64,000 nucleotides of DNA from Candidatus Aminicenantes bacterium (GTDB taxonomy: Bacteria > Acidobacteriota > Aminicenantia > Aminicenantales > CAVYOD01), in NCBI GenBank assembly GCA_963701305.1, contig OY969586.1, forward strand, positions 1,865,509 to 1,929,508. The letters are read 5' to 3'. The position numbers were made by a program, and so were the translations under genes. Each line of letters begins with the position of its first letter. The first letter of the stretch is position 1. The notes under the pieces were generated by a model. The model ran no database searches. It saw only the letters and a list, made by a program, of their open reading frames with translations, and was not told the origin of the DNA. Positions 9,927 through 62,573 of this stretch are shown piece by piece.

Positions 9927-9980
9927 CGGCATGAATATTATATTCATAACCGTCTATCCCGTCTATCTCGCAAAATTGCA

Positions 9981-10020
9981 GTAAGGGTGAGGGGTGAGGC
10001 GTAAGGGGCAAGAGGCAAAG
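9981..10020. repeat. Tandem GTRAGGG heptad array (copy A, one-armed)
   Basis: gtaaggg/tgagggg/tgaggcg/taagggg/caagagg: about 5 tandem 7-nt units in the ftsY/recJ divergent region. A 9-nt direct repeat (cgtctatcc cgtctatct) lies immediately upstream. Confidence 0.7.
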
Positions 10021-17538: not shown

Positions 17539-18396
17539 GTGAAGGATGACAGGTTCCTCATCATCACCGGGCTGTCCGGGTCGGGAAAAACCGCGGTCAG
17601 CCATTTCCTCGAGGACCTGGGTTACTACTGCGTGGACAATCTGCCGGCCAAGCTGATCCCGAGCTTCGTCGACCTGTGGCTCAGGGAAGAAGTCGAGATC
17701 GAACGCGTAGCCCTGGTCGTCGATATCCGGGAGCCGGGTTTTCTGAGCAAGTTTCCTCTCGTCTGGAGGGAGATCAACAAAAAGATATCCCCCCGGTTGA
17801 TCTTCCTGGAGGCTTCCGACGAAGCCCTGGTCAAACGGTTCAGCGAGAGCCGCCGGCCCCATCCGCTGACCAAGAAGAAGTCCGTCCTGGAAGGCGTTCG
17901 CCTCGAGCGCAAGCGGTTGGCAGAGATCAAGAAGATGTCGGATGAAGTCATCGATACTTCGGCCTCCACCGTCTCCCAGCTCAAGGAGTTGTTGATGCGG
18001 CGGTTTTCTAAGCGAAAGGGCCCGCGCCTTCAGATCGTTCTTGTCAGTTTCGGCTACAAATACGGTTTGCCCATAGAATCAGACCTCGTCTTCGACACAC
18101 GTTTCCTTCCCAATCCCTTTTATGAGGAGGCCCTCAGAGAAAAGACTGGAAACAATCGCCTGGTCAGGGACTTCGTCCTCAAATCTCCGGAGACCCAGGC
18201 CTTCCTGGCCGAGCTGATTCGTTTCCTGGATTTTCTGATTCCCAAATTCCTGGACGAAGGCAAGAGTTATCTGACCGTCGCCGTCGGCTGCACGGGGGGA
18301 AAGCACAGGTCCGTGGTGATCGCGGAAAAATTGAACGGGTACTTTCACAAGCACGGTTATCATAGTAAAATCTATCACCGGGATATGTTCAAATAA
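17539..18396 (+). CDS. rapZ: RNase adapter protein RapZ (YhbJ)
   Basis: 285 aa. P-loop ITGLSGSGKT. Conserved position after ptsN in the rpoN cluster. Confidence 0.88.
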   Translation: MKDDRFLIITGLSGSGKTAVSHFLEDLGYYCVDNLPAKLIPSFVDLWLREEVEIERVALVVDIREPGFLSKFPLVWREINKKISPRLIFLEASDEALVKRFSESRRPHPLTKKKSVLEGVRLERKRLAEIKKMSDEVIDTSASTVSQLKELLMRRFSKRKGPRLQIVLVSFGYKYGLPIESDLVFDTRFLPNPFYEEALREKTGNNRLVRDFVLKSPETQAFLAELIRFLDFLIPKFLDEGKSYLTVAVGCTGGKHRSVVIAEKLNGYFHKHGYHSKIYHRDMFK

Positions 18397-18400
18397 AAAA

Positions 18401-18440
18401 GTGAGGAGTCGGGGGTGAGGAGTGAGGGGTAAGAAGTCAG
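18401..18440. repeat. Tandem GTGAGGR heptad array (copy B, one-armed)
   Basis: gtgagga/gtcgggg/gtgagga/gtgaggg/gtaagaa/gtcag between the rapZ stop and the EIIA(Man) start. Confidence 0.7.
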
Positions 18441-18500
18441 CAAAAAAAATATCATCGATAGGATCGACGCGGCGAACATGACGAACGCGGAGAGTGCAAG

Positions 18501-19195: not shown

Positions 19196-20959
19196 ATGGA
19201 CATCATCCGCCTCAGAGGGATCGGCGTTTCTCCCGGGATCGCCATGGGCGAAGTCCGGCTCTCCGCACGCGTCATCTTCACTGGAAGAAAGGAAACCATC
19301 TCCTCCCGCCGGGTTGATAACGAGCTGCGGCGGATGAAAAGGGCCATCGCCCGGACCAGGGCGGAGCTGGTCAAGATCAAAGGGGAGATCAAAAAGAAGA
19401 TGGGGGACGAACACGCCTTTATCTTCGACGCCCACCTTCTTATCCTTCAGGATAAATCCCTGCTGACGAGTCTGGAGAGGATCATTCGCGAAGACAGGGT
19501 GAAGACAGAGTGGGCTCTCTCTCAGATCAATAACAAGTATTTGAGGGTCTTCGAGGCGATCAACGATGAATATTTCAGGCAGAGGAAATCGGATATCTCC
19601 GACGTTCTGGCCAAGGTCTATCGAAATCTGGAGGCCGGGAAAAAGACCACAGAAACGGACGAAGCCGACAAGATATTAGTCGCCCATGAACTTCTGCCCT
19701 CTGAAGCGGCCTCCAGGCTCAGCCGGGGAACGATCCTGGGGGTGGCTATGGACATGGGCGGGCAGACGTCCCATACGGCGATCCTGGCGCGGTCCCTGAA
19801 CATTCCCGCCGTGGTCGGCCTCCACAACCTGACCCGGCTCGTCAAGAATGGGGACAATTTGATCGTGGACGGGACCGACGGTGAGGTCATCGTCAACCCT
19901 CCCCTGGCGGTGCGGAAGGAATTCGCAAGCAAGCGGGAGAAATACAACACCTACAGGAAGGACCTGCAAAAAACCTCCCGGCTGGCCTCGGCGACCCTGG
20001 ACGGCGAAAGATTCTTTCCGCTGGCCAACATCGAGCTGCCTGAGGAAGTGAATAACGCATTCTCCTTCGGGGCAGAGGGAATCGGTCTCTTCAGGTCTGA
20101 ATTTCTCTACCTCCGGGGTTCCCTCCTTCCCACTGAAGACGATCATTTTGCGGTCTATTCCAGGATCGCCAAGGAAGCCTATCCCGCTCCGGTGTACATT
20201 CGGACGATCGACATCGGGGGCGAAAAGGCCCTGCCCCAACTGAATATCGAGAAAGAGCCCAACCCTGCCCTGGGGCTGAGGGCGATCCGTTTTTCCCTCC
20301 GCAACAAGGATATGTTCATGACCCAACTCCGGGCTGTTTTGAGGGCCAGCGCCCTGGGCAACATGAGGGTCCTCATCCCCATGATCACGGAGCTCGAGGA
20401 GATTCTGGAAGTCAAACACCTTTTTGAGGAAGTGAAGGAGGGGCTCCGCGAACACAAGGTCAAATTTGATGAGCACATCCCGCTGGGTATCATGATCGAA
20501 GTTCCAGCCGCTGCCGCGGTCGCCGATATGCTCGCTGAGCATGTGGATTATCTTAGCATCGGGACGAACGACCTCATTCAATATTATTTGGCCGTAGACC
20601 GTTCCAATGAGTATGTCTCCTACCTCTATAAACCCCTCCACCCTTCGGTGCTCAGGCTCATCCGCTTCGTCATCAAGTCGGCCCTCAAGGCGGGTAAAGA
20701 TGTTACGGTCTGCGGAGAGATGGCGGCCGATCCTCTGTCGGCGCTTTTCTTGCTCGGCTTCGGGTTGAGAAAATTCAGCATGAACCCGATCTTCATTCCC
20801 AAATTCAAAAAGGCCCTCCGCTCTGTCGACTCGCGGACAGTGGAAAAGGTGATCCAGGGTGCCCTGAAATTGAAGACCGCTCAGGCGATCGAGGAATACG
20901 TTATTGAAGAGATCCTGGTGAAATACCCCGGTGTATTCCTGATGGGCCCCACGAGCTAA
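19196..20959 (+). CDS. ptsI: PTS enzyme I (phosphoenolpyruvate-protein phosphotransferase)
   Basis: 587 aa. Phosphohistidine motif GGQTSHTAILARSL. PEP-utilising C-terminal domain. Confidence 0.92.
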   Translation: MDIIRLRGIGVSPGIAMGEVRLSARVIFTGRKETISSRRVDNELRRMKRAIARTRAELVKIKGEIKKKMGDEHAFIFDAHLLILQDKSLLTSLERIIREDRVKTEWALSQINNKYLRVFEAINDEYFRQRKSDISDVLAKVYRNLEAGKKTTETDEADKILVAHELLPSEAASRLSRGTILGVAMDMGGQTSHTAILARSLNIPAVVGLHNLTRLVKNGDNLIVDGTDGEVIVNPPLAVRKEFASKREKYNTYRKDLQKTSRLASATLDGERFFPLANIELPEEVNNAFSFGAEGIGLFRSEFLYLRGSLLPTEDDHFAVYSRIAKEAYPAPVYIRTIDIGGEKALPQLNIEKEPNPALGLRAIRFSLRNKDMFMTQLRAVLRASALGNMRVLIPMITELEEILEVKHLFEEVKEGLREHKVKFDEHIPLGIMIEVPAAAAVADMLAEHVDYLSIGTNDLIQYYLAVDRSNEYVSYLYKPLHPSVLRLIRFVIKSALKAGKDVTVCGEMAADPLSALFLLGFGLRKFSMNPIFIPKFKKALRSVDSRTVEKVIQGALKLKTAQAIEEYVIEEILVKYPGVFLMGPTS

Positions 20960-20966
20960 TAATATA

Positions 20967-21060
20967 GTGTGAGGTAAGAGGTCAGGAGTAAGGGGCAAAA
21001 ATCAGAAAACCCCTTCCCCCTTACCGTTTACTCCTTACCACTTATAGCTGACTGCTCAGC
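20967..21060. repeat. Heptad-unit inverted-repeat element (copy C)
   Basis: Left arm gtgtgaggtaagaggtcaggagtaagggg. Right arm ccccttcccccttaccgtttactccttaccacttatagctgactgctcagc is its imperfect reverse complement. Lies between convergent ptsI and the cupin gene; likely hairpin-forming. Confidence 0.7.
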
Positions 21061-26695: not shown

Positions 26696-26783
26696 CCGAG
26701 TACGTGAGCGGTGAGCAGTGAGCGGTGAGATGTTCAAATCAAAAAACGGAATGGTTCACTGCTCAGTGATCACATCTCACTGC
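26696..26783. repeat. GTGAGCR heptad inverted-repeat element (copy D)
   Basis: Left arm cgtgagcggtgagcagtgagcggtgagatg. 25-nt spacer. Right arm actgctcagtgatcacatctcactgctcactgg (reverse-complementary). Lies between the helicase stop and the tolQ start on the - strand, so it sits in a transcribed 3'/5' region. Confidence 0.75.
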
Positions 26784-29177
26784 TCACTGGAGGAGGGCTT
26801 TGAGGATTTCCCTGGCGACCTGCTTGGCCTGCTCGCCGCTCTCCTTCGTCGGCCCGACGCAGGAGGGGCATCCTTCCTGGCAGGGGCAGATTTCGATCGT
26901 CTTCAGACAGTGTTCGAGGAGGGCCGTCTCTAGCTCAAAGAGTGAAGGGCTCAACCCGATTCCGCCGGGATAGTTATCGTAGATAAAAATATTGGGCTCA
27001 AAATCGGCGTCGGCGAAGATGGGCTGCTCTTCCTGGCGCAGGATCTTGAGGGGAATGGTCCTGGGAGGAACGGATTCGCCGGTGGAATTGTCTCCGATGG
27101 AGGCTCCGACGTCGTGGAGATCACACATCATGAACAATGGCGAGACGTGATGGAGAAGGTAGGCCAGCCCGAAAAGCCCGTTGATCTTCTGTTCCGAAAG
27201 GAAGGGCAAAACCTGGATGATGGAGGCGGGAATGGTCAGCCAGTAGGCCGTGGTGTGCATCTCATTCTGGGGTAGACTCAGGTCTCCGGCTCCGACGTTT
27301 TCCATGGTTTGGAATTTGATCTTCTTGAAGCCGACCACTTGAGTGGCGACATGGACCTCTCCGTGGGAGACAGTGCAGCCGTCAAGCGCTTTTTTGTTGA
27401 AGACATCGAGGATCTTGATCTTGGTATAGTCGATGGCATCGGTGAAATAGTCAACATCGGTCTTTTTGACATAGGCCTTGCGCTGGTCATACTCGAGCTT
27501 CTCGACGAAGTACTGTTCACCTTCGCAGATGTAAATGGCTTTGGGATGAAGGGTTGTCAGGGCCGAGGAGAAGTCGACCTCGGCGATGGCTTTGGATTTT
27601 TGGGTGGTATCGACGACGACGAAGTTGTCGGAGCTGATGCTGCGCAGACTGACGCCGTCGGCCGGATAGACATCGGACGTCCAGAACCATTTGTCCTGGG
27701 AGTGGTGAACGAGCTTCTCTTCCTCCAAGAATTTCAGAATCTCAGAGGGTTCGCCCTCGCCGAATTTTTCGCCGTCCGTGAAGGGGAGCTCGAACGCGGC
27801 GCACTCGATGTGGCTGATGAGGATGGAGAGGTTGTCGGGGTTGATGAGCGCCCGCTCCGGCGGTTTCGAAAAGAAGTAATCGGGGTGGTTGACGATGAAT
27901 TGATCGAGCGGGGAGCTCGAGGCCACGAGCACGGCCGCGGATATTCCGGTCTTGCGGCCCGCCCGCCCGGCCCGCTGCCAGGTGCTGGCGATCGTTCCGG
28001 GATAGCCGGCCAGCACGGCCACGTCCAGGCTTCCGATGTCGATCCCGAGCTCCAGGGCGTTGGTCGAGACGACTCCGAGGATCTTGCCCTCGCGCAGGCC
28101 CTTCTCGATCTCCCGCCTGGTGAGGGGAAGATAGCCTCCCCTGTAGCCTCTGATCAGTCCCTCGTCCTTGATCGTCTTTTCGATGTCTCCCTTGAGGTAG
28201 GTGAGCAGGACCTCGGTGATCAGCCGGCTCTGGGCGAAGATGATCGTCTGGAGACGATTCTTGAGGAAGATCGAGGCCAGGCGGCGTGATTCATTGACAT
28301 AGGACCGCCGGATCCCCAACGGTTTGTTGACCACGGGCGGCGTATAAAAGATGAAATACTTTTCCCCCCGCGGCGCTCCGTTGTCGTCGACCAAGGCGAC
28401 CGGCCGCTCGATCATTTTTTCGGCCATCTCGACCGGATTGGCGATCGTCGCCGTACAGAGGATGACCTGGGGGTTAGAGCCGTAGAACTGGGCGATCCTC
28501 TTCAGCCGCCGAAGGACGTTGGCCAGATGACTGCCGAAGATCCCTCGGTAATTGTGGAGCTCATCGATAACGATATATCTCAAATTCTCGAAGAGCTTGA
28601 TCCATTTGGTGTGGTGGGGAAGAATGCCCGAGTGGAGCATATCCGGGTTGGTCAGGACGATGTGACCCCTGGCCCGGATGGCCTTGCGCGCATCCTGGGG
28701 TGTGTCTCCGTCATAGGTGAAGATACGGATCTCTTCGGGGAGGAAATGGATGATCTCGTTGAGCTCGGCCTGCTGGTCCTGGGAAAGCGCTTTGGTCGGG
28801 AAAAGATAGAGGGCTCGGGCGGAGGGGTTCTTGAGAATCGTGTCGAGAACGGGAAGGTTGTAACAGAGCGTTTTTCCCGAAGCGGTCGGCGTGACGACAA
28901 CAATGTTCTTCCCCTCTCGAATGGCCTGCCAAGAGGTCAGTTGGTGGGAATAGAGCCGCTCGAAGCCTTTCTGCCTCAGGGCCTCGAGGAGGGCGGGGTG
29001 AACACCGTCCGGGTAATCCTGAAACCGGCCTGCCTGGGCCGGCAGGTGTTTGATCGCCTTGATGGAATCGGACTTGTGGCCGATTTCCCTCAGGATTTCC
29101 AGGGATTTGAGGAGGTTTTCTTCTCTGGGCATGCCCGTCTCTCTAACCTCGGTCCATGCTATCCTATAAAGCGCCAA
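26784..29177 (-). CDS. DEAD/DEAH-box helicase with C-terminal DUF1998 zinc module (YprA/MrfA family)
   Basis: 797 aa. Helicase motifs I (TPTASGKT), II (DELH), VI (QRAGRAGR) and a C-terminal Cys cluster (CPCQEGCPSC). Confidence 0.85.
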   Translation of the reverse strand: MALYRIAWTEVRETGMPREENLLKSLEILREIGHKSDSIKAIKHLPAQAGRFQDYPDGVHPALLEALRQKGFERLYSHQLTSWQAIREGKNIVVVTPTASGKTLCYNLPVLDTILKNPSARALYLFPTKALSQDQQAELNEIIHFLPEEIRIFTYDGDTPQDARKAIRARGHIVLTNPDMLHSGILPHHTKWIKLFENLRYIVIDELHNYRGIFGSHLANVLRRLKRIAQFYGSNPQVILCTATIANPVEMAEKMIERPVALVDDNGAPRGEKYFIFYTPPVVNKPLGIRRSYVNESRRLASIFLKNRLQTIIFAQSRLITEVLLTYLKGDIEKTIKDEGLIRGYRGGYLPLTRREIEKGLREGKILGVVSTNALELGIDIGSLDVAVLAGYPGTIASTWQRAGRAGRKTGISAAVLVASSSPLDQFIVNHPDYFFSKPPERALINPDNLSILISHIECAAFELPFTDGEKFGEGEPSEILKFLEEEKLVHHSQDKWFWTSDVYPADGVSLRSISSDNFVVVDTTQKSKAIAEVDFSSALTTLHPKAIYICEGEQYFVEKLEYDQRKAYVKKTDVDYFTDAIDYTKIKILDVFNKKALDGCTVSHGEVHVATQVVGFKKIKFQTMENVGAGDLSLPQNEMHTTAYWLTIPASIIQVLPFLSEQKINGLFGLAYLLHHVSPLFMMCDLHDVGASIGDNSTGESVPPRTIPLKILRQEEQPIFADADFEPNIFIYDNYPGGIGLSPSLFELETALLEHCLKTIEICPCQEGCPSCVGPTKESGEQAKQVAREILKALLQ

Positions 29178-34391: not shown

Positions 34392-34928
34392 TCATTTTTT
34401 CATGATCTTCCGGAGCAGCTTCTGGGCGTAGTTGACTCGCTCACTCACTCTTCGAGGCGAAATTCCTAGGCGCTTGGCCACTTCCTCCCTGGAGAGTTCC
34501 TTATAATAATAGAGATAGATGACCTCCTTGAACTTGGGTTTTAACTTGTCCAGAGCCCCGGAGATCCATTCCGCCCGCTCTTTGCTCTCGACGTCCTCCT
34601 GGGGGTCGGGAAAAGGATTGCTCTCGGGGATGTGTCTCAGGACCTTGCTCTTCTCCCGGATATGATCCACAATCCTCCTGCTGGTAATGGTATAGATGAA
34701 GGTTCCGATCGAGGAATCCCCCCGGAACTCGCCCTTGCGTAGCTTTTCGATGGTCTGGGTCATGATCTCGGCGACGACATCTTCCCAGTCCGGGCTGTAG
34801 CTGCCCAGGGTGCGTCTGACTCTGAAGCTGACCACCGGTCTGTATTTGGTGATGATCTCTTCTAGATTGAACTCCCTTTTTTCTGCGCTCACGGCTGCTA
34901 TTATATCGATTGGTCCCTGGGTTGACAA
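34392..34928 (-). CDS. ECF-type RNA polymerase sigma factor
   Basis: 178 aa. Sigma-70 region 2 and region 4 HTH (…LSREEVAKRLGISPRRVSERV…). Confidence 0.88.
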   Translation of the reverse strand: MSTQGPIDIIAAVSAEKREFNLEEIITKYRPVVSFRVRRTLGSYSPDWEDVVAEIMTQTIEKLRKGEFRGDSSIGTFIYTITSRRIVDHIREKSKVLRHIPESNPFPDPQEDVESKERAEWISGALDKLKPKFKEVIYLYYYKELSREEVAKRLGISPRRVSERVNYAQKLLRKIMKK

Positions 34929-36350: not shown

Positions 36351-36395
36351 AACCGTCCCCCGTCCTCCGTGCCCCGTCAATCTCACCAAGAAGAC

Positions 36396-36718
36396 GGTGA
36401 GCAGTGAGCTGTGAGCACTGAGCAGCTAAAAAACGATGATCCAGAACAGCTGAACACGCCGTGCATCCTTCCGAAGTAACGTCCGGGCGGGAATTAAAGA
36501 TAGTCAAGAACATAAATCAAGAACCCCGAGATCATACTTGGTGCTCTGTCTGATTCCCTCAAAATAAGAGACGGACGCACATCCAAGCCCAGGTCCGCGC
36601 CCCTGATTGCCGGCTGTGGGAAAAGAGCCGTCGGGAGTGAGTCTTAATCGCGGTGTCAAGCATAAGATAGCCTTTTATGCTTTTCACTGCTCAGTGCTCA
36701 CAGCTCGCCGCTCACTGG
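36396..36718. repeat. MITE-like element bounded by inverted GTGAGCR heptad arms (copy E)
   Basis: Left arm 36396-36426 ggtgagcagtgagctgtgagcactgagcagc. Right arm 36685-36718 cactgctcagtgctcacagctcgccgctcactgg. Reverse complements share a perfect 20-mer gagctgtgagcactgagcag. They enclose 258 bp of non-coding sequence between convergent HD-GYP and ftsK. Confidence 0.75.
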
Positions 36719-36731
36719 AGGTCTTGACGAA

Positions 36732-39050
36732 TTATTGTTGTTCTTTTTGTTTGAGGTAGGAGATGGGGTCGACAAGGATGTCCCGCGGTTTGCTGCCTTC
36801 GCCGGGTCCCAGGATCCCTTCTTGTTCCATCTGGTCGATGATTCTCGCGGCCCGGGCATAGCCCAGCTTCAGCTTTCTCTGGAGGTAGGAGACCGATGCC
36901 TGACCGGTATTGAGGATAAGCTCCACTGCTTTTTCGTAGAGCTCATCCTTCTCCCCATCTTCGTCCCAGACCTGGTCCGACGCGCCTTTGACCACATTGA
37001 CGATCTTCTCATCGTATTTCGGCGTCCTCTGTTCGCGGACGAATTTGACCAGGCGTCTGACCTCCGGGATGGAGATGTAAGCGCAGTGCAACCGGATGAT
37101 TCTGGGGTAGTTGGGAGGCATGAACAGCATGTCACCCAGGCCCAGGAGCTTATCGGCCCCGATCGTGTCGATGATGATTCTGGAATCGACTTTGGAGGGC
37201 ACGCGGAAGGCGATCCGGCTTGAGAAATTGTTCTTGATCGTCCCGGTGATGACATCGATCGACGGACGCTGGGTCGCCATCACCAGGTGAATGCCAACGG
37301 CCCGGGCGAGCTGGGCCAACCGAGCGATGCAATTCTCCACATCCTGGGCTCCGACCATCATTAGCTCGGCCAACTCATCAATGATGATGATGATGTAAGG
37401 GAGCGGCTTGAATTTTTCTTTCTCCTCATCGGAGAGCTTCCCCTTCTTTTCGGTCAGGATCTGCTTGACCTGCTGGTTGTACTGCTCGATGTTGCGGACC
37501 TTCATCAGGTTCAGTGTCTGGTACCTCTCTTCCATTTTCTTGATGGCGTAATAGAGCACGGGGGCGGCCTTCTTGGGATCGTTGATCACCGGGCTGAGGA
37601 GGTGGGGGATGCCTTCGTAAAGGGTGAATTCCAGCCTCTTGGGGTCGATAAGGATCAGCTTTACTTCGTCCGGGGTGGATTTGTAAAGAATGGAGGCAAT
37701 GAGGGCGTTGAGGGCGACACTTTTTCCCGTCCCCGTCGCCCCGGCGATGAGCAGGTGGGGCATGACCGACAGATCGGTCACGTAGACCTCTCCGTGGACG
37801 GTTTTCCCCAGGGCGAAGCTCAACCTGGAGGGAGCGTTCATGAATTTTTCCGATTGGATGATATCCCTGAGGTTGATGACCTCTCGCCGATTATTGGGGA
37901 TCTCCACCCCTAGTGAGGATTTGCCGGGGATTCTCTGAATTCTGACTGATTCCGCACCCAGGGCGAGAGACAGGTCCTCGGCGAGGTTGGCGACCTGAGC
38001 GATTTTTATCCCCGGATCGGGACAAAATTCGTAGGTCGTGATGACCGGGCCGGGATGGTACTCCCTGACCTCTCCCTGGACCTTGAACTCACGGAGCTTC
38101 TCCTCGATCCGCTGCTTTTTTTCATAGAGTTCACTTTTATCGACTTTTTCTGACGGTTTGCCGGGGTCGAGCAAATTGAAGGGCGGAAAATGATAATCTC
38201 CCGTCAGTTCCATCTCCGGGAAGAGAAACTTCTCGGGCGGCCGCGGGGGTTCCGCGACAGGAGGAGCGGTCCCCAGTCTGAGCCCCCTCTTGGGTTCCTT
38301 GGCTTTTTTTTGCTTCTCTTCTTTTTTCGCCTCTTTCTTGTCTTCTTTTTCTTTGTCTTTCTCCGGAGCCGGCGACGAGTACTTCTTGACGACCTTATCC
38401 CTCATCTTCTCTTTGTTCTTGGATTTCTGGTAATGGATCACGCGGATCCTGACTTCCTTGAAGGCGAACTGAGAAACGCGGGCCAAGGAATGAAGGACCT
38501 TGCTCAAGGAGAATTCCGTGGAGAACATGATGAAAAGGATGAGCCCGGCGATGAGAAAGATCAGCGTCCCAACGTGGTTAAAATAGCGAATCAGGAGAGA
38601 AGAGAGGGAGCTTCCGATAATGCCGCCGGCCGGGATTTCGGTCCCGCCCCAGGTGTAGCTCTGGAACAGAATAAAGGATAGGGAACTCAGGATAAAAACA
38701 AAGAGGACTGTCCCGCCGAATCGCAGCAGGAGTCGGGCGGTCTTCTGGGACAGGATCGACCTGAGCCCAAGATAGCCCAGGAGGAAGGGGAAAACAAATG
38801 CGGAAAGGCCGAGGAATTGAAGAAAAACCTCGGCCAGCGAGGCACCGACCTTTCCTCCGAAGTTGTGGACTTTAGCCCGGGAGGAAGTGACGCTGGCCCA
38901 GGATGGGTCCTTGGAGTCGTAACTGACCAGGCTGATCAGAAGGAAAAGCGATAGAAAGACGACAAGGATGCCGACGATCTCCGAGGAAAAAGTGCGCTTT
39001 TTCGCCGAGCGTTTTTCCGGCGCCGCCTTCTTGCTTTTTTTGATCGTCAT
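36732..39050 (-). CDS. ftsK: DNA translocase FtsK/SpoIIIE
   Basis: 772 aa. N-terminal TM segments, Lys/Glu/Pro-rich linker, motor domain with Walker A (GATGTGKS) and a C-terminal gamma winged helix. Confidence 0.92.
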   Translation of the reverse strand: MTIKKSKKAAPEKRSAKKRTFSSEIVGILVVFLSLFLLISLVSYDSKDPSWASVTSSRAKVHNFGGKVGASLAEVFLQFLGLSAFVFPFLLGYLGLRSILSQKTARLLLRFGGTVLFVFILSSLSFILFQSYTWGGTEIPAGGIIGSSLSSLLIRYFNHVGTLIFLIAGLILFIMFSTEFSLSKVLHSLARVSQFAFKEVRIRVIHYQKSKNKEKMRDKVVKKYSSPAPEKDKEKEDKKEAKKEEKQKKAKEPKRGLRLGTAPPVAEPPRPPEKFLFPEMELTGDYHFPPFNLLDPGKPSEKVDKSELYEKKQRIEEKLREFKVQGEVREYHPGPVITTYEFCPDPGIKIAQVANLAEDLSLALGAESVRIQRIPGKSSLGVEIPNNRREVINLRDIIQSEKFMNAPSRLSFALGKTVHGEVYVTDLSVMPHLLIAGATGTGKSVALNALIASILYKSTPDEVKLILIDPKRLEFTLYEGIPHLLSPVINDPKKAAPVLYYAIKKMEERYQTLNLMKVRNIEQYNQQVKQILTEKKGKLSDEEKEKFKPLPYIIIIIDELAELMMVGAQDVENCIARLAQLARAVGIHLVMATQRPSIDVITGTIKNNFSSRIAFRVPSKVDSRIIIDTIGADKLLGLGDMLFMPPNYPRIIRLHCAYISIPEVRRLVKFVREQRTPKYDEKIVNVVKGASDQVWDEDGEKDELYEKAVELILNTGQASVSYLQRKLKLGYARAARIIDQMEQEGILGPGEGSKPRDILVDPISYLKQKEQQ

Positions 39051-39074
39051 CGGGGGAGATTATAACATATTTTA

Positions 39075-39298
39075 GTGAGCAGTGAGCAGTGAGCAGTGAG
39101 CACTGAAATAATTAACACATCATCTTTATCGATTATAATGAAGATGCTTTTATTTATAATAGGTTCTTGCCAGTTAAACGGAGCGACGCAGACCAGATAA
39201 ACGTTTGTCCAGTGAGAACTGAGCAATAAAGTACTTCGCTGATTCGGCCTTTACTTGCTTTTTTTGGCTTCTCACTGCTCAGTGCTCACGGCTCACTG
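39075..39298. repeat. MITE-like element with AT-rich core bounded by inverted GTGAGCA heptad arms (copy F)
   Basis: Left arm 39075-39106 (gtgagcagtgagcagtgagcagtgagcactga). Right arm 39270-39298 (tctcactgctcagtgctcacggctcactg). Reverse complements match 19/20. The 163-bp core is about 30% GC in a 58% GC genome. The right arm supplies the last codons (…SEP*) of the upstream GT-C gene. The left arm ends 25 bp before the ftsK start codon. Confidence 0.75.
39112..39139 (+). promoter_or_regulatory. Sigma-70-like promoter motif inside element F core (TTAACA-N16-TATAAT); a second TATAAT at 39155-39160
   Basis: Perfect -10 hexamers in the AT-rich core. A GC hairpin plus T7 run (ggcctttacttgcTTTTTTTgg, 39247-39267) lies about 120 nt downstream on the same strand. 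Orientation and function not established. Confidence 0.3.
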
Positions 39299-41706
39299 TT
39301 TTCTCCGAGGGGCGGGAGCTCGCGAACCTCGAAACTCTCCGATCTTCCGACTCGGGCCGGCTTCCGGTTGTCATAATAGTCGTCGTAGCCGACCACGATC
39401 CTAAAGGGACGAGGCAGAGAAGGAATTTCCCAAGATCCCGTGACTGGCGCCCTGCGGTCGGCCTGCCAGGAGCCCACCTTGCCCTCAAAGAGAACGTGTT
39501 TTTGGACCTCACGGCCGTCCCGGTCTGTGATTTGCACAAACGGGTTGAGGACATACTCTTCGCCCCAGCGGAGCTCCCCCCCAAAGACCGCGCTGGAGAG
39601 TCTCCATGCCCCCCCCCTGTCGGCCAGGGAGACGACCTGGCAGTAGGCGTGGCCGCGATCGTTTGGAACGAGGATGTAATAATAAAAAAAGGTGAAGGAC
39701 TTTTGGCCGGGAACAAACTTGATAGTTCCGTAAGGCAAGGGGCTTTCCTTGGTCAGCTGACGCTCCGGCTTGGGAAGTCTGAGTCCTGGAATCTTAAGGT
39801 CATATTTATAGCCGATCGCAACCTTGGAATCATCCGGCCATGAAGGAAGGCGAGAGGAGCCCGAATACGAAGATTCGGACTCTTTCTCCAAACGGCCCGG
39901 ATAAACCTTTAACAGACTGATCTCTCTTCCCCGGATATCTGAGATCCGGACATAGGGATCTCTCACGTGTTCATTCAGCCCCGGGAGCGGCCTTCCGGAA
40001 ACGAAACTGGACAGGGCCCAGCTCCCGTCCTCGGCTTCTTTTAAGATAACACTCTGCGAATAGGAGCTGAAGTTACCGGGGAAAAGATGGGTGGGACAGT
40101 TCGTCCATTTGTAGACTCTGATCGTAGGATTGTGAAGGTCGGTCAGAGGCGGGTCATTTTTGTACTCGTCCCAGGCAGGCTCGAAGGTTTTGATCAAAAC
40201 GCCGCCGGCATCCAGCGAGCCGTAAAATTCCGCCTCTCTGGGAAACTCTTTCGGAAAACGGGTGAACCGCGCCGACATGGCGTCGCTTGTGACGACATAC
40301 TGGATTCTTTTCCAGGTGAGCCACTCCAGGTTGATCTGGCTCAAGGTGTGCCGATAAGAAAGTTGATAATCTTGCGGGGAAAGAGGAGGGCAGTAGGACT
40401 CCAGTGCGATTCTACTCCCCTTCGCGATGAACCTCTCAATCCAGGCTTTGGCCGTGATCCGGGTATCCGGTCGAGTCAGAGTGTAATCGACCATCACGAC
40501 CTTGTAAGCAGGGCCAAGGAGGAGGATGAAGACGACGGCCGCGGCGAGGATTTTTTCTCCCGCCGGAGTCACTTTTGCTTTCAAATGGAGCGACGACGAC
40601 AGCTTTTTGAGCCACGATAACATGGCGTCCAGAAAGAGAGAGGCCAAGAGAATCAGGAAGGGAGCGAGAGGGAGCATGTACCGGGTCGCTCTCGTCTTCC
40701 ACATGCCGATCAGGATAAAAAGCACGAGTGGGTAGGAGAGCAGAATGAGGTCTTTCTTTCTGTGCCGGACCAGGGCGTAGACGAGACCCCCTCCGACCAG
40801 GAACTGGGCGTAAGGCCCGACATTTTCTCTGAACCCGTACTTGAGGTAAAAAAGCCAGGCGGGATCCGCCGTCGAATCGCCGAAGTGGCCGAAGGAATAG
40901 AGATGTCTCGATTGCCAGCGAAAATCTCTCCAGAAGGTCGGAAAATCAAGCACGGCATATGGACAACCGGCCAGGAATCCGGCGGTGAATGAGGCCGCTG
41001 ATAGAAAGAGATCAGGACTCAGAATGATCTTTCGAAGCGGAAGCTTGTTTTCGAGGATACGAAAGATGTGGGCCAGGATAAGAGGAAGGAAGAGCATTTG
41101 GCCGCCGTACTTTGTGGCCGTGGCCAGTCCGGCTGCCAGTCCGGCCCAAACATAGTATTTTCGATCGCCTCGAGTGTAGATGAGCCAGCAAAAAAAGAAA
41201 GATAAAACCAGAAAGAAAACCATCGGTGAGTCGGGGTTCATGTAGTGCGAGATTTTGTTGTGCTCGGGCGAAAATATCAGGAACAGCCCGGCCAGGAATC
41301 CGAGGCGCCGATCGTACATTTTTTTCCCGATGAGATAGACGAGGAGGATTGTCCCCACGCTCAGAAAAAGGGTCAGGAGACGGCCGATGAGATAGAAAAC
41401 GGTTGGGTCATGGTTGAAATGGGCGACGAAGGTCGCGACAGAAGGAAAATTCCCGGCCATCTTGCCGCCGAGAAAATAGACGCCCCACAGCGCCGCGACC
41501 ATATAGGTATAAAGAGTAGGGACATGGAAAAAATGGGGGTCCAGGCCCTTGCTGAAATAGTCGATCGAGATCTGGGCGAAGCGCGCCTCGTCAACGTGAA
41601 GAATGAAGGGCAGGCCGAAATTGATGCCCCAGCCTCGAACGAGGACCGCGAGGACGACAAGGACAATGAGGACGGTTTTTTCTGATGGAAATTTCTCGGA
41701 ATTCAT
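39286..41706 (-). CDS. GT-C fold glycosyltransferase, ArnT/PMT-like (GT39/GT83) with large C-terminal periplasmic domain
   Basis: 806 aa. About 11 N-terminal TM helices with a first-loop acidic motif (HVDEARFAQ), then a roughly 350-aa soluble domain. Confidence 0.75.
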   Translation of the reverse strand: MNSEKFPSEKTVLIVLVVLAVLVRGWGINFGLPFILHVDEARFAQISIDYFSKGLDPHFFHVPTLYTYMVAALWGVYFLGGKMAGNFPSVATFVAHFNHDPTVFYLIGRLLTLFLSVGTILLVYLIGKKMYDRRLGFLAGLFLIFSPEHNKISHYMNPDSPMVFFLVLSFFFCWLIYTRGDRKYYVWAGLAAGLATATKYGGQMLFLPLILAHIFRILENKLPLRKIILSPDLFLSAASFTAGFLAGCPYAVLDFPTFWRDFRWQSRHLYSFGHFGDSTADPAWLFYLKYGFRENVGPYAQFLVGGGLVYALVRHRKKDLILLSYPLVLFILIGMWKTRATRYMLPLAPFLILLASLFLDAMLSWLKKLSSSLHLKAKVTPAGEKILAAAVVFILLLGPAYKVVMVDYTLTRPDTRITAKAWIERFIAKGSRIALESYCPPLSPQDYQLSYRHTLSQINLEWLTWKRIQYVVTSDAMSARFTRFPKEFPREAEFYGSLDAGGVLIKTFEPAWDEYKNDPPLTDLHNPTIRVYKWTNCPTHLFPGNFSSYSQSVILKEAEDGSWALSSFVSGRPLPGLNEHVRDPYVRISDIRGREISLLKVYPGRLEKESESSYSGSSRLPSWPDDSKVAIGYKYDLKIPGLRLPKPERQLTKESPLPYGTIKFVPGQKSFTFFYYYILVPNDRGHAYCQVVSLADRGGAWRLSSAVFGGELRWGEEYVLNPFVQITDRDGREVQKHVLFEGKVGSWQADRRAPVTGSWEIPSLPRPFRIVVGYDDYYDNRKPARVGRSESFEVRELPPLGENSEP

Positions 41707-62350: not shown

Positions 62351-62400
62351 AGAAATGTCGCGTTTGTATTAGTCATCTCGTCATCCCGTCAAGAAAGAGA

Positions 62401-62476
62401 AAGCAGTAAGCTGTAAGCACTGAGCAGTGAAAGCCCAAATCAAATATTTTCTTACCGTTCACTCCTTACCCCTGAC
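62401..62476. repeat. Heptad-unit inverted-repeat element (copy G)
   Basis: aagcagtaagctgtaagcactgagcagtga … ttaccgttcactccttacccctgac. Shares the cttaccgttYactccttacc module with copy C. Confidence 0.7.
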
Positions 62477-62573
62477 TATCTTCTCGACGAGATGGACGTC
62501 TTTTTGTTGTTTTTTAGGTGAAAACTGGCATAAAATAAGCCGGGTTGGAGATAAAAAAAGCCCGAGATTCCGA

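Follow-up and report, generated by a model that had tools for sequence, protein, structure and literature searches.

Among long simple repeats in bacteria, heptamers are over-represented more than any others (Mrazek 2007, as cited in PMC4679880 and PMC4692102), yet such repeats are without an accepted function. We analysed an inverted pair of heptad arrays (the arms) and the DNA that they enclose (the core), located in the spacer between ftsK and a GT-C glycosyltransferase gene of Candidatus Aminicenantes. The stretch of contig OY969586.1 that was analysed (the window) is 64 kb long, out of a 4.07-Mb genome. On balance, we favour the view that the arms form a heptad hairpin at the border of a variable glycan-gene island, and that the hairpin loop carries a lineage-specific non-coding element, probably an antisense-directed RNA. 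At this single site, relatives form a natural series in which heptads are missing, the hairpin is bare, or the loop holds short fillers or a conserved insert of 164 nt. The locus combines arrays that end reading frames, an island border, and enclosed conserved non-coding DNA with a promoter.

GGGAATC heptamers of Xanthomonas occur as 70-75 pairs per genome, convergent and on opposite strands, and vary between close relatives in length and sequence (Rehm et al. 2015, PMC4692102). The arms resemble these pairs in being tandem 7-nt intergenic units at many dispersed loci, convergent and abutting gene ends. However, the unit here is GTGAGCN, which does not form G-quadruplexes (G4) and carries TGA in all three frames; the loops hold long conserved non-coding inserts, and GTGAGCN spans many phyla. 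The features of a heptameric simple-sequence repeat pair were all found: a tandem 7-nt unit in at least three copies, dispersed intergenic loci, convergence, and copy-number variation. Placement at gene ends was likewise found, the stops of the GT-C gene and of a helicase gene being heptad TGAs and the left arm occupying the non-coding strand upstream of ftsK.

The classic units of cyanobacterial short tandemly repeated repetitive (STRR) sequences are CCCCAGT, TTGGTCA, and CAACAGT. STRR sequences are tandem intergenic heptamers dispersed in Calothrix and Anabaena (Mazel et al. 1990, as cited in PMC4692102). The arms share with them tandem heptamers in intergenic DNA and dispersal through the genome; STRR units differ in sequence and are not known as hairpin arms that enclose conserved cargo. 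TAACTGA repeats are patchily distributed across phyla, in Beggiatoaceae, Cyanobacteria, and Bacteroidetes (MacGregor 2015, PMC4679880). Their arrays form 169 direct sets vs. 1 indirect set, lie just upstream of start codons, and have no predicted structure (PMC4679880). TAACTGA resembles the unit studied here as an intergenic heptamer with stops in forward orientation, so that it can overlap gene ends by only a few bases. In contrast to the inverted pairs at gene ends found here, TAACTGA sets are almost all direct repeats near starts, with no predicted structure.

Repetitive extragenic palindromic (REP) sequences, bacterial interspersed mosaic elements (BIME), REPINs, and MITEs (miniature inverted-repeat transposable elements) are extragenic palindromes at gene ends, nested or mosaic and strain-variable, for which 3'-end stabilization and termination have been proposed (PMC3116915, PMC3733652). 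A REP is a single imperfect palindrome of 20-40 nt that has GTAG or CGTC at its head and is partnered by a RAYT transposase (PMC3116915, PMC3733652). The heptad hairpins are similarly dispersed at gene ends, nested, and present in some strains and not in others. However, their arms consist of tandem heptads and have no such head, which sets them apart from REP, and whereas MITE families comprise multiple copies that share internal sequence, the loops here are unrelated and the core is unique. Inverted arms are present, and persist without the core; no direct duplication outside the arms was seen by eye in the sequence. Judged by their sequence, the arms are a dispersed heptameric-repeat family of a known, poorly understood kind, here in a new lineage, and an ordinary instance of a known architecture. 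No paper on such heptad repeats in Aminicenantes was found. As a lead, the core is of moderate interest, being a conserved element with a promoter inside a polymorphic hairpin loop.

The locus comprises the following features:

36732-39050, minus strand: ftsK, 772 aa (Pfam FtsK_4TM, alpha, FtsK_SpoIIIE, and gamma)
39059-39067, minus strand: probable ftsK promoter, extended -10 TGTTATAAT, read from the sequence, 8 nt before the ATG
39074-39106, plus strand: left arm, AGTGAGC x4.7 (Tandem Repeats Finder, TRF, period 7, score 59)
39107-39270, no strand assigned: core, 164 nt, 36% GC, non-coding, single-copy, lineage-specific
39112-39139, plus strand: sigma-70-type promoter-like site TTAACA-N16-TATAAT, 11/12 match in promoter scans
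39155-39160, plus strand: second TATAAT
39210-39225, plus strand: internal partial arm CAGTGAGAACTGAGCA; repeats the left arm in direct orientation; 13/14 complementarity with the right arm
39221-39265, plus strand: weak AU-rich hairpin (39221-39258) followed by a T7 run (39259-39265)
about 39270-39298, minus strand: right arm, AGTGAGC CGTGAGC ACTGAGC AGTGAGA (TRF 39271-39298, CTCACTG x4.0)
39286-41706, minus strand: GT-C glycosyltransferase gene of the PMT family, 806 aa (Pfam PMT and PMT_2)

A previous reading of the window from its letters alone (the sequence-only reading) had described inverted heptad arms flanking an AT-rich core. An inverted-repeat search confirmed the arms: the best 20-nt pairing matches at 19/20 positions (39087-39106 with 39279-39298), and a longer pairing extends over 38 nt with 82% complementarity. 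The core is AT-rich as described; its length is 164 nt and its GC content 36%, not about 30%, and the background of 58% GC given in that reading was measured as 54.1% in the window. The internal partial arm had been overlooked. Folding of the whole region was much more stable than that of shuffled sequences on both strands (z = -5.3 and -4.4), the minus strand having a minimum free energy (MFE) of -71.7 kcal/mol (z = -4.4). The left arm begins 23 nt from the ftsK ATG and overlaps the -35 region of the probable ftsK promoter.

The orthologous ftsK/GT-C spacer was read in seven other contigs:

L001 (= L002): 91.9% DNA identity to the window; arms and the same core
L003 and L132: arms directly adjoining, forming a tight hairpin (-25 kcal/mol); core absent
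L130: a short right arm and the left arm, separated by an unrelated 38-nt filler
L133: arms enclose a different, GC-rich filler of 36 nt
L131: heptads absent; spacer of 32 nt
L004: a relative with 39% GC; heptads absent; AT-rich spacer of 238 nt

The number of heptads per arm varied among the window, L001, L130, L003/L132, and L133. Arm hairpins lie directly after stop codons and are stable in each arm-bearing strain. In L130, pairing between the two arms has been lost. An insertion had been proposed, and the core is indeed polymorphic for insertion/deletion: the arms are retained abutting in L003 and L132 and around fillers of 36-38 nt in L130 and L133. Retention of the arms without the core or with other fillers indicates that the arms exist independently of the core and that loop content turns over. 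The proposal that the arms are termini specific to this cassette was not upheld: they persist without the core, and two other loci in the window have the same arrays around unrelated loops. Among GT-C and FtsK protein cluster members, a search for further core-bearing lineages found only fragments or strains without the core. Homologues of the GT-C protein are annotated as Candidatus Aminicenantes. P0004 and P0007 proved to be shorter paralog-type PMT genes in a different context. The GT-C gene of the 143-kb contig L130 (7495-9914) is split into three open reading frames (ORFs) of 197, 254, and 330 aa, reflecting either a pseudogene or long-read indel errors.

A pattern search found 17 heptads in the window vs. 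0.39 expected. Three inverted heptad pairs (A, B, and C, the last being the pair upstream of ftsK) are present, all convergent and with unrelated loops. The first two are:

26703-26789, no strand assigned: hairpin A, same heptad arms, 24-nt loop, fold of -34.5 kcal/mol
36396-36717, no strand assigned: cassette B, arms 36396-36425 and 36684-36717, 258-nt core unrelated to core C

ftsK is bracketed by cassette B directly downstream and cassette C upstream. Cassette B lies between convergent genes, and a promoter scan detected no promoter in it. Cassette B varies independently of cassette C: the window and L132 carry it, and L001 and L130 lack it entirely. An ortholog of hairpin A was found in L130.

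Direct reading of (GTGAGCA)n gives TGA in all three frames, and no stop in any frame of its complement. The stop of an MrfA-like helicase gene is the heptad TGA at 26784-26786, in the right arm of hairpin A. At our locus the right arm supplies the last codons of the GT-C gene and its stop, as the sequence-only reading had noticed; the protein ends in ...ENSEP*, and the TGA (39286-39288) lies within a right-arm heptad. That reading had further claimed that the insertion remodelled this C-terminus, and comparison of C-termini in relatives showed otherwise. Like the window, L001, L003, and L132 have a heptad TGA as the GT-C stop; this holds for every arm-bearing relative read, whether or not the core is present. 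The C-termini are ..EEKK* in L001, with the core present, and ..EGKK* in L003 and L132, with the core absent; the GT-C frame of the window differs by one reading frame and is stopped by the next heptad. Because the heptad TGA stop occurs both with the core (L001) and without it (L003, L132), these sequence comparisons indicate that the C-terminus is shaped by the heptad array and not by the core.

The cassette had also been thought to contain or displace the ftsK promoter. The extended -10 of ftsK (TGnTATAAT-N8-ATG) is located outside the arms, between the left arm and the ATG. The same motif was found at the same distance in the window, L001, L130, L003, L132, L133, and L004; in L131, which has no heptads, the -10 motif is kept and the start codon has moved 6 nt downstream. 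Since the -10 is kept in lineages with the core, without the core, and without heptads, the ftsK promoter lies outside the arms and is older than they are, and the idea of a displaced promoter can be discarded. The ftsK mRNA is probably leaderless or near-leaderless. A second gene of this kind is an ECF sigma gene (34892-34928, minus strand), in which TTGTCA-N17-TATAAT is followed after 7 nt by GTG, apparently leaderless; the mechanical ORF start of this gene (TTG at 34928) would place the promoter inside the gene. The ftsK and ECF sigma genes together suggest that leaderless mRNAs are common in this organism.

These observations bear on one alternative explanation, that the cassette is a mobile MITE-like element, self-contained and bounded by repeats, that inserted upstream of ftsK. 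It would have brought in a trans-acting small RNA (sRNA) gene equipped with a promoter and a terminator of its own, and in doing so displaced the promoter of ftsK and rewritten the C-terminus of GT-C. The inverted arms, the presence or absence of the core among relatives, the strong promoter in the core, and the strain distribution of cassette B, which comes and goes together with its arms, are all as a mobile element would have them. However, the arms persist in L003 and L132, where the core is absent; the ftsK promoter is conserved outside the arms; the C-terminus depends on the heptads, whether or not the core is there; and the proposed terminator lacks both strength and conservation. Nor was a second copy found. 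BLAST of cores B and C against the window and all fetched loci returned orthologs only, an exact core 22-mer matched only the ortholog contig among metagenome contigs, and the core was found neither in viral contigs (two scans) nor in plasmids or phages (distant BLAST). The present data suggest a single core copy and arms that are older than the core at this site. Given arms that remain without the core, a single-copy core, and the failure of the promoter and C-terminus claims, the mobile sRNA cassette is the weakest of the rival explanations, and we consider it quite improbable.

We then return to the favoured reading, a hairpin loop with an antisense-directed RNA, and to the content of the core. 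Promoter scans confirmed TTAACA-N16-TATAAT at 39112-39139, which the sequence-only reading had pointed out. The site is near-consensus (11/12), and its hexamers and spacing are unchanged in L001. It points away from ftsK, toward the 3' end of the GT-C gene, with a predicted start near 39146. An 11/12 match arises by chance in 0.5-0.9% of composition-matched random 164-mers. There are four such matches in the 64 kb, including the core site, and each of the other three lies upstream of a gene in the correct orientation. The occurrence of these three at real gene starts indicates that consensus sigma-70 promoters appear to be used in this organism. Because the core promoter is near-consensus and directed away from ftsK, the core most likely makes a short non-coding RNA; the sRNA of roughly 120 nt put forward in the sequence-only reading is likewise a prediction.

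Other signals in the core were less well preserved. The second TATAAT reported at 39155-39160 is present, but is TCTAAT in L001. A GC stem followed by a T-run, a terminator-like arrangement, had been described; the T7 run exists and is kept in L001, but the stem is AU-rich and weak. The folding energy of this hairpin is -6.2 kcal/mol in the window and -1.9 kcal/mol in L001, the closest relative, where substitutions disrupt it with no compensation. A scan for intrinsic terminators made no call at the T7 run, and the stem is not G+C-rich. Six-frame translations revealed no long ORF in the core. A small protein was considered and rejected, the 20-aa ORF MKMLLFIIGSC... being frame-shifted in L001. 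The core has what is expected of an sRNA gene with its own promoter and no ORF downstream, namely the 11/12 sigma-70 match and no conserved ORF. It resembles bacterial sRNA genes in having an intergenic near-consensus promoter, no downstream ORF, a T-run ~120 nt downstream, and, in the two lineages compared, above-neutral conservation for which recombination may also account; it differs in that the terminator hairpin is weak and not conserved, no family was matched, and it has been found in one narrow lineage only.

An 11-nt direct repeat, CCAG(T/A)TAAACG, occurs at 39170-39180 and 39193-39203, 23 nt apart, in the most conserved part of the core. CCAGWTAAACG was tried as a recurrent protein-binding motif and rejected, as it showed no significant enrichment elsewhere in the window. 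Inspection by eye gave no match to a dif/Xer site or to a LexA box of the Acidobacterium type (GTTC-N7-GTTC).

Between the window and L001, conservation is higher in the core than at neutral sites. Identity is 154/163 (94.5%) in the core, vs. 82-83% at four-fold sites overall (82% over the 128 codons that begin ftsK and 75% over the 135 that end the GT-C gene) and 80% and 82% in two other intergenic regions. This excess was significant (Fisher p = 5e-5, binomial p = 5e-6), with two lineages only being compared. L001 shows no change in either promoter hexamer or in a 49-nt block (39183-39231), and the internal partial arm is identical there. Core B behaved similarly in a different strain pair: 244/258 positions (94.6%) are identical between the window and L132, with no indels, vs. 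83% at ftsK four-fold sites. The substitutions in core B showed no 3-periodicity, and no compensatory pairs supporting its structure were found in the two sequences available. Core identity above neutral suggests either function (purifying selection) or recent exchange bounded by the arms.

The GT-C gene is the upstream neighbour of ftsK and the final gene of a variable glycan-gene island. Over ftsK and the region downstream, L130 and L132 match the window and L001 at 93-98% identity, vs. 77-83% over the GT-C gene, and their GT-C region is 95% like that of L003. The heptad arms are exactly where the identity changes. The genes upstream are different as well, with a PKD-domain gene in L130 and L132 vs. 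a GDSL lipase gene in the window and L001. The identity step and the differing upstream genes indicate that the hairpin marks the edge of a recombining glycan-gene island.

An alternative explanation is that the core is functionless filler in an unstable loop, with a promoter motif produced by chance in AT-rich DNA and an identity that stems from recent arm-bounded recombination or cassette exchange. At least four loop contents at one site among close relatives fit this view, as do the recombination border at the arms, the lack of an Rfam family and of visible compensatory changes and the decay of the T-run hairpin in L001; judging from the chance estimate given above, a few 11/12 matches would be expected genome-wide in AT-rich spacers. 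However, with four-fold sites beside the arms at 0.75-0.82, a recombination tract would need both of its ends exactly at the arms. The excess conservation recurs in core B for another pair of strains, and the other 11/12 promoter matches of the window lie at real gene starts. We regard filler as a possibility, though a rather doubtful one.

The minus strand allows a further explanation, in which the core acts in cis and the arm duplex (~28 bp, a likely RNase III-type substrate) is processed in sense RNA that reads through from GT-C, thereby ending the GT-C message, freeing a stable core RNA, and insulating ftsK, while the plus-strand promoter is secondary. The long near-perfect arm pairing on this strand, with the MFE and z value given above, would suit processing. 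Cassette B has the same arms and a conserved core with no detectable promoter, between convergent genes, and hairpins directly follow stop codons in all arm-bearing strains. However, the strongest signal in the core is the antisense promoter, and the L130 arms have lost their mutual pairing; we consider this explanation quite improbable.

The distribution of the unit was investigated by an exact scan for GTGAGCNGTGAGCNGTGAGC in one-genome-per-species contigs, which constitute a sample and not a census. GTGAGCN was found at at least 120 loci in many phyla. The matches listed come from Pyrinomonadaceae and other Acidobacteriota, Gemmatimonadota, cyanobacteria, Alpha-, Beta-, and Deltaproteobacteria, Planctomycetota, Nitrospirota, and others; in Rivularia, Allocoleopsis, and other cyanobacterial metagenome-assembled genomes (MAGs) they are GTGAGCN or GTGAACN arrays, some with inverted partners. 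Among the matches listed, the order (GTGAGCN)n...(NGCTCAC)n occurs at 37 loci vs. 2 loci with the opposite order (p = 3e-9), and the loops of inverted pairs range from 0 to about 400 nt. Of 209 arrays in the same matches, 101 (48%) close an open frame of at least 300 nt, vs. 7.6% for random windows. Matches with a 21-nt period (Streptococcus contigs, L020, L024, L079) look like coding repeats.

Taken together with the locus itself, these data are consistent with the following model of the favoured hairpin with antisense cargo. Inverted GTGAGCN arrays are a simple-sequence repeat placed at gene borders in this Aminicenantes clade and in many other bacteria. On either strand, the first array met reads GTGAGCN, and its three-frame TGA closes any incoming frame, here supplying the stop of the GT-C gene. 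In RNA, the arms would pair in a long hairpin directly after this stop, which may end or stabilize the GT-C transcript and so separate GT-C from ftsK. For ftsK, transcription would begin at a separate extended -10 promoter just beyond the left arm and yield a leaderless mRNA. The 164-bp core would be the lineage-specific filling of the loop, and its promoter would most likely yield a non-coding RNA of ~120-160 nt, predicted to be antisense to the GT-C 3' end.

Several points weigh against this model. The T7-associated hairpin is weak and degraded in L001, which leaves the predicted RNA without a clean intrinsic terminator. Rfam gave no match in the whole window at gathering thresholds, and permissive scans of both cassettes (E up to 10) gave noise only, so that no family is matched by the core. 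The core is known from two independent lineages only (the window, and L001 = L002), and its high identity may come from recent arm-bounded exchange and not from selection. Because the hairpins have no U-tract in the sense direction, a terminator role for them can only be inferred. The cross-phylum figures come from a sample (at least 120 loci) and not from a census. If the core RNA is real, it would be a first candidate regulatory RNA for uncultured Aminicenantes, and would suggest that heptad hairpins serve as lodging places for new non-coding genes. If it is not, what remains is a fast-evolving spacer of an ordinary sort, assembled from a repeat type already known.

A broader proposal is that GTGAGCN hairpins are cross-phylum slots at gene ends, of fixed polarity, with three-frame stops facing both directions and exchangeable, selected non-coding cargo, the arms acting as exchange points that bound islands. 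The core upstream of ftsK would then be one such cargo, a lineage-specific antisense RNA. Both long-loop cassettes in the window are ~94.5% conserved vs. ~82% at neutral sites. The proposal is speculative, and we think it unlikely in this general form.

Two GTGAGCG hairpins in one Gemmatimonadales MAG (L015, 2222-2308, and L022, 6668-6773) have the same palindromic loop element, GTGTCATCCCGAGGAGCG..AGCGACGAGGGATCTACT... These two loci raise the notion that heptad hairpin loops may be landing sites for small mobile repeats.

The window also contains degenerate GTRAGNN hairpins and single arrays:

20966-21058, no strand assigned: degenerate hairpin or array
62397-62477, no strand assigned: degenerate hairpin or array
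9985-10010, no strand assigned: degenerate hairpin or array
18399-18443, no strand assigned: degenerate hairpin or array

The degenerate arrays at 18394-18443 (AGTGAGG/AGTCGGG) and 20959-21058 (GTGAGGT/GTAAGGG) begin a few bases from the stops of genes ending at 18396 and 20959, and the latter array folds into a hairpin of -32.6 kcal/mol. A second, CGTC-rich repeat type (CCGTCTATC, CCGTCCC, TCGTCATC; units of 7-9 nt) is located in the window at 9950-9967, 36353-36378, and 62372-62391, the first of these being 3 nt upstream of a start codon. This repeat forms inverted pairs of its own downstream of ftsK in L001 (14990-15105) and L130 (12327-12515). In these two strains a CGTC-type hairpin fills the place of cassette B, and cassette B is nested in the loop of that outer hairpin.

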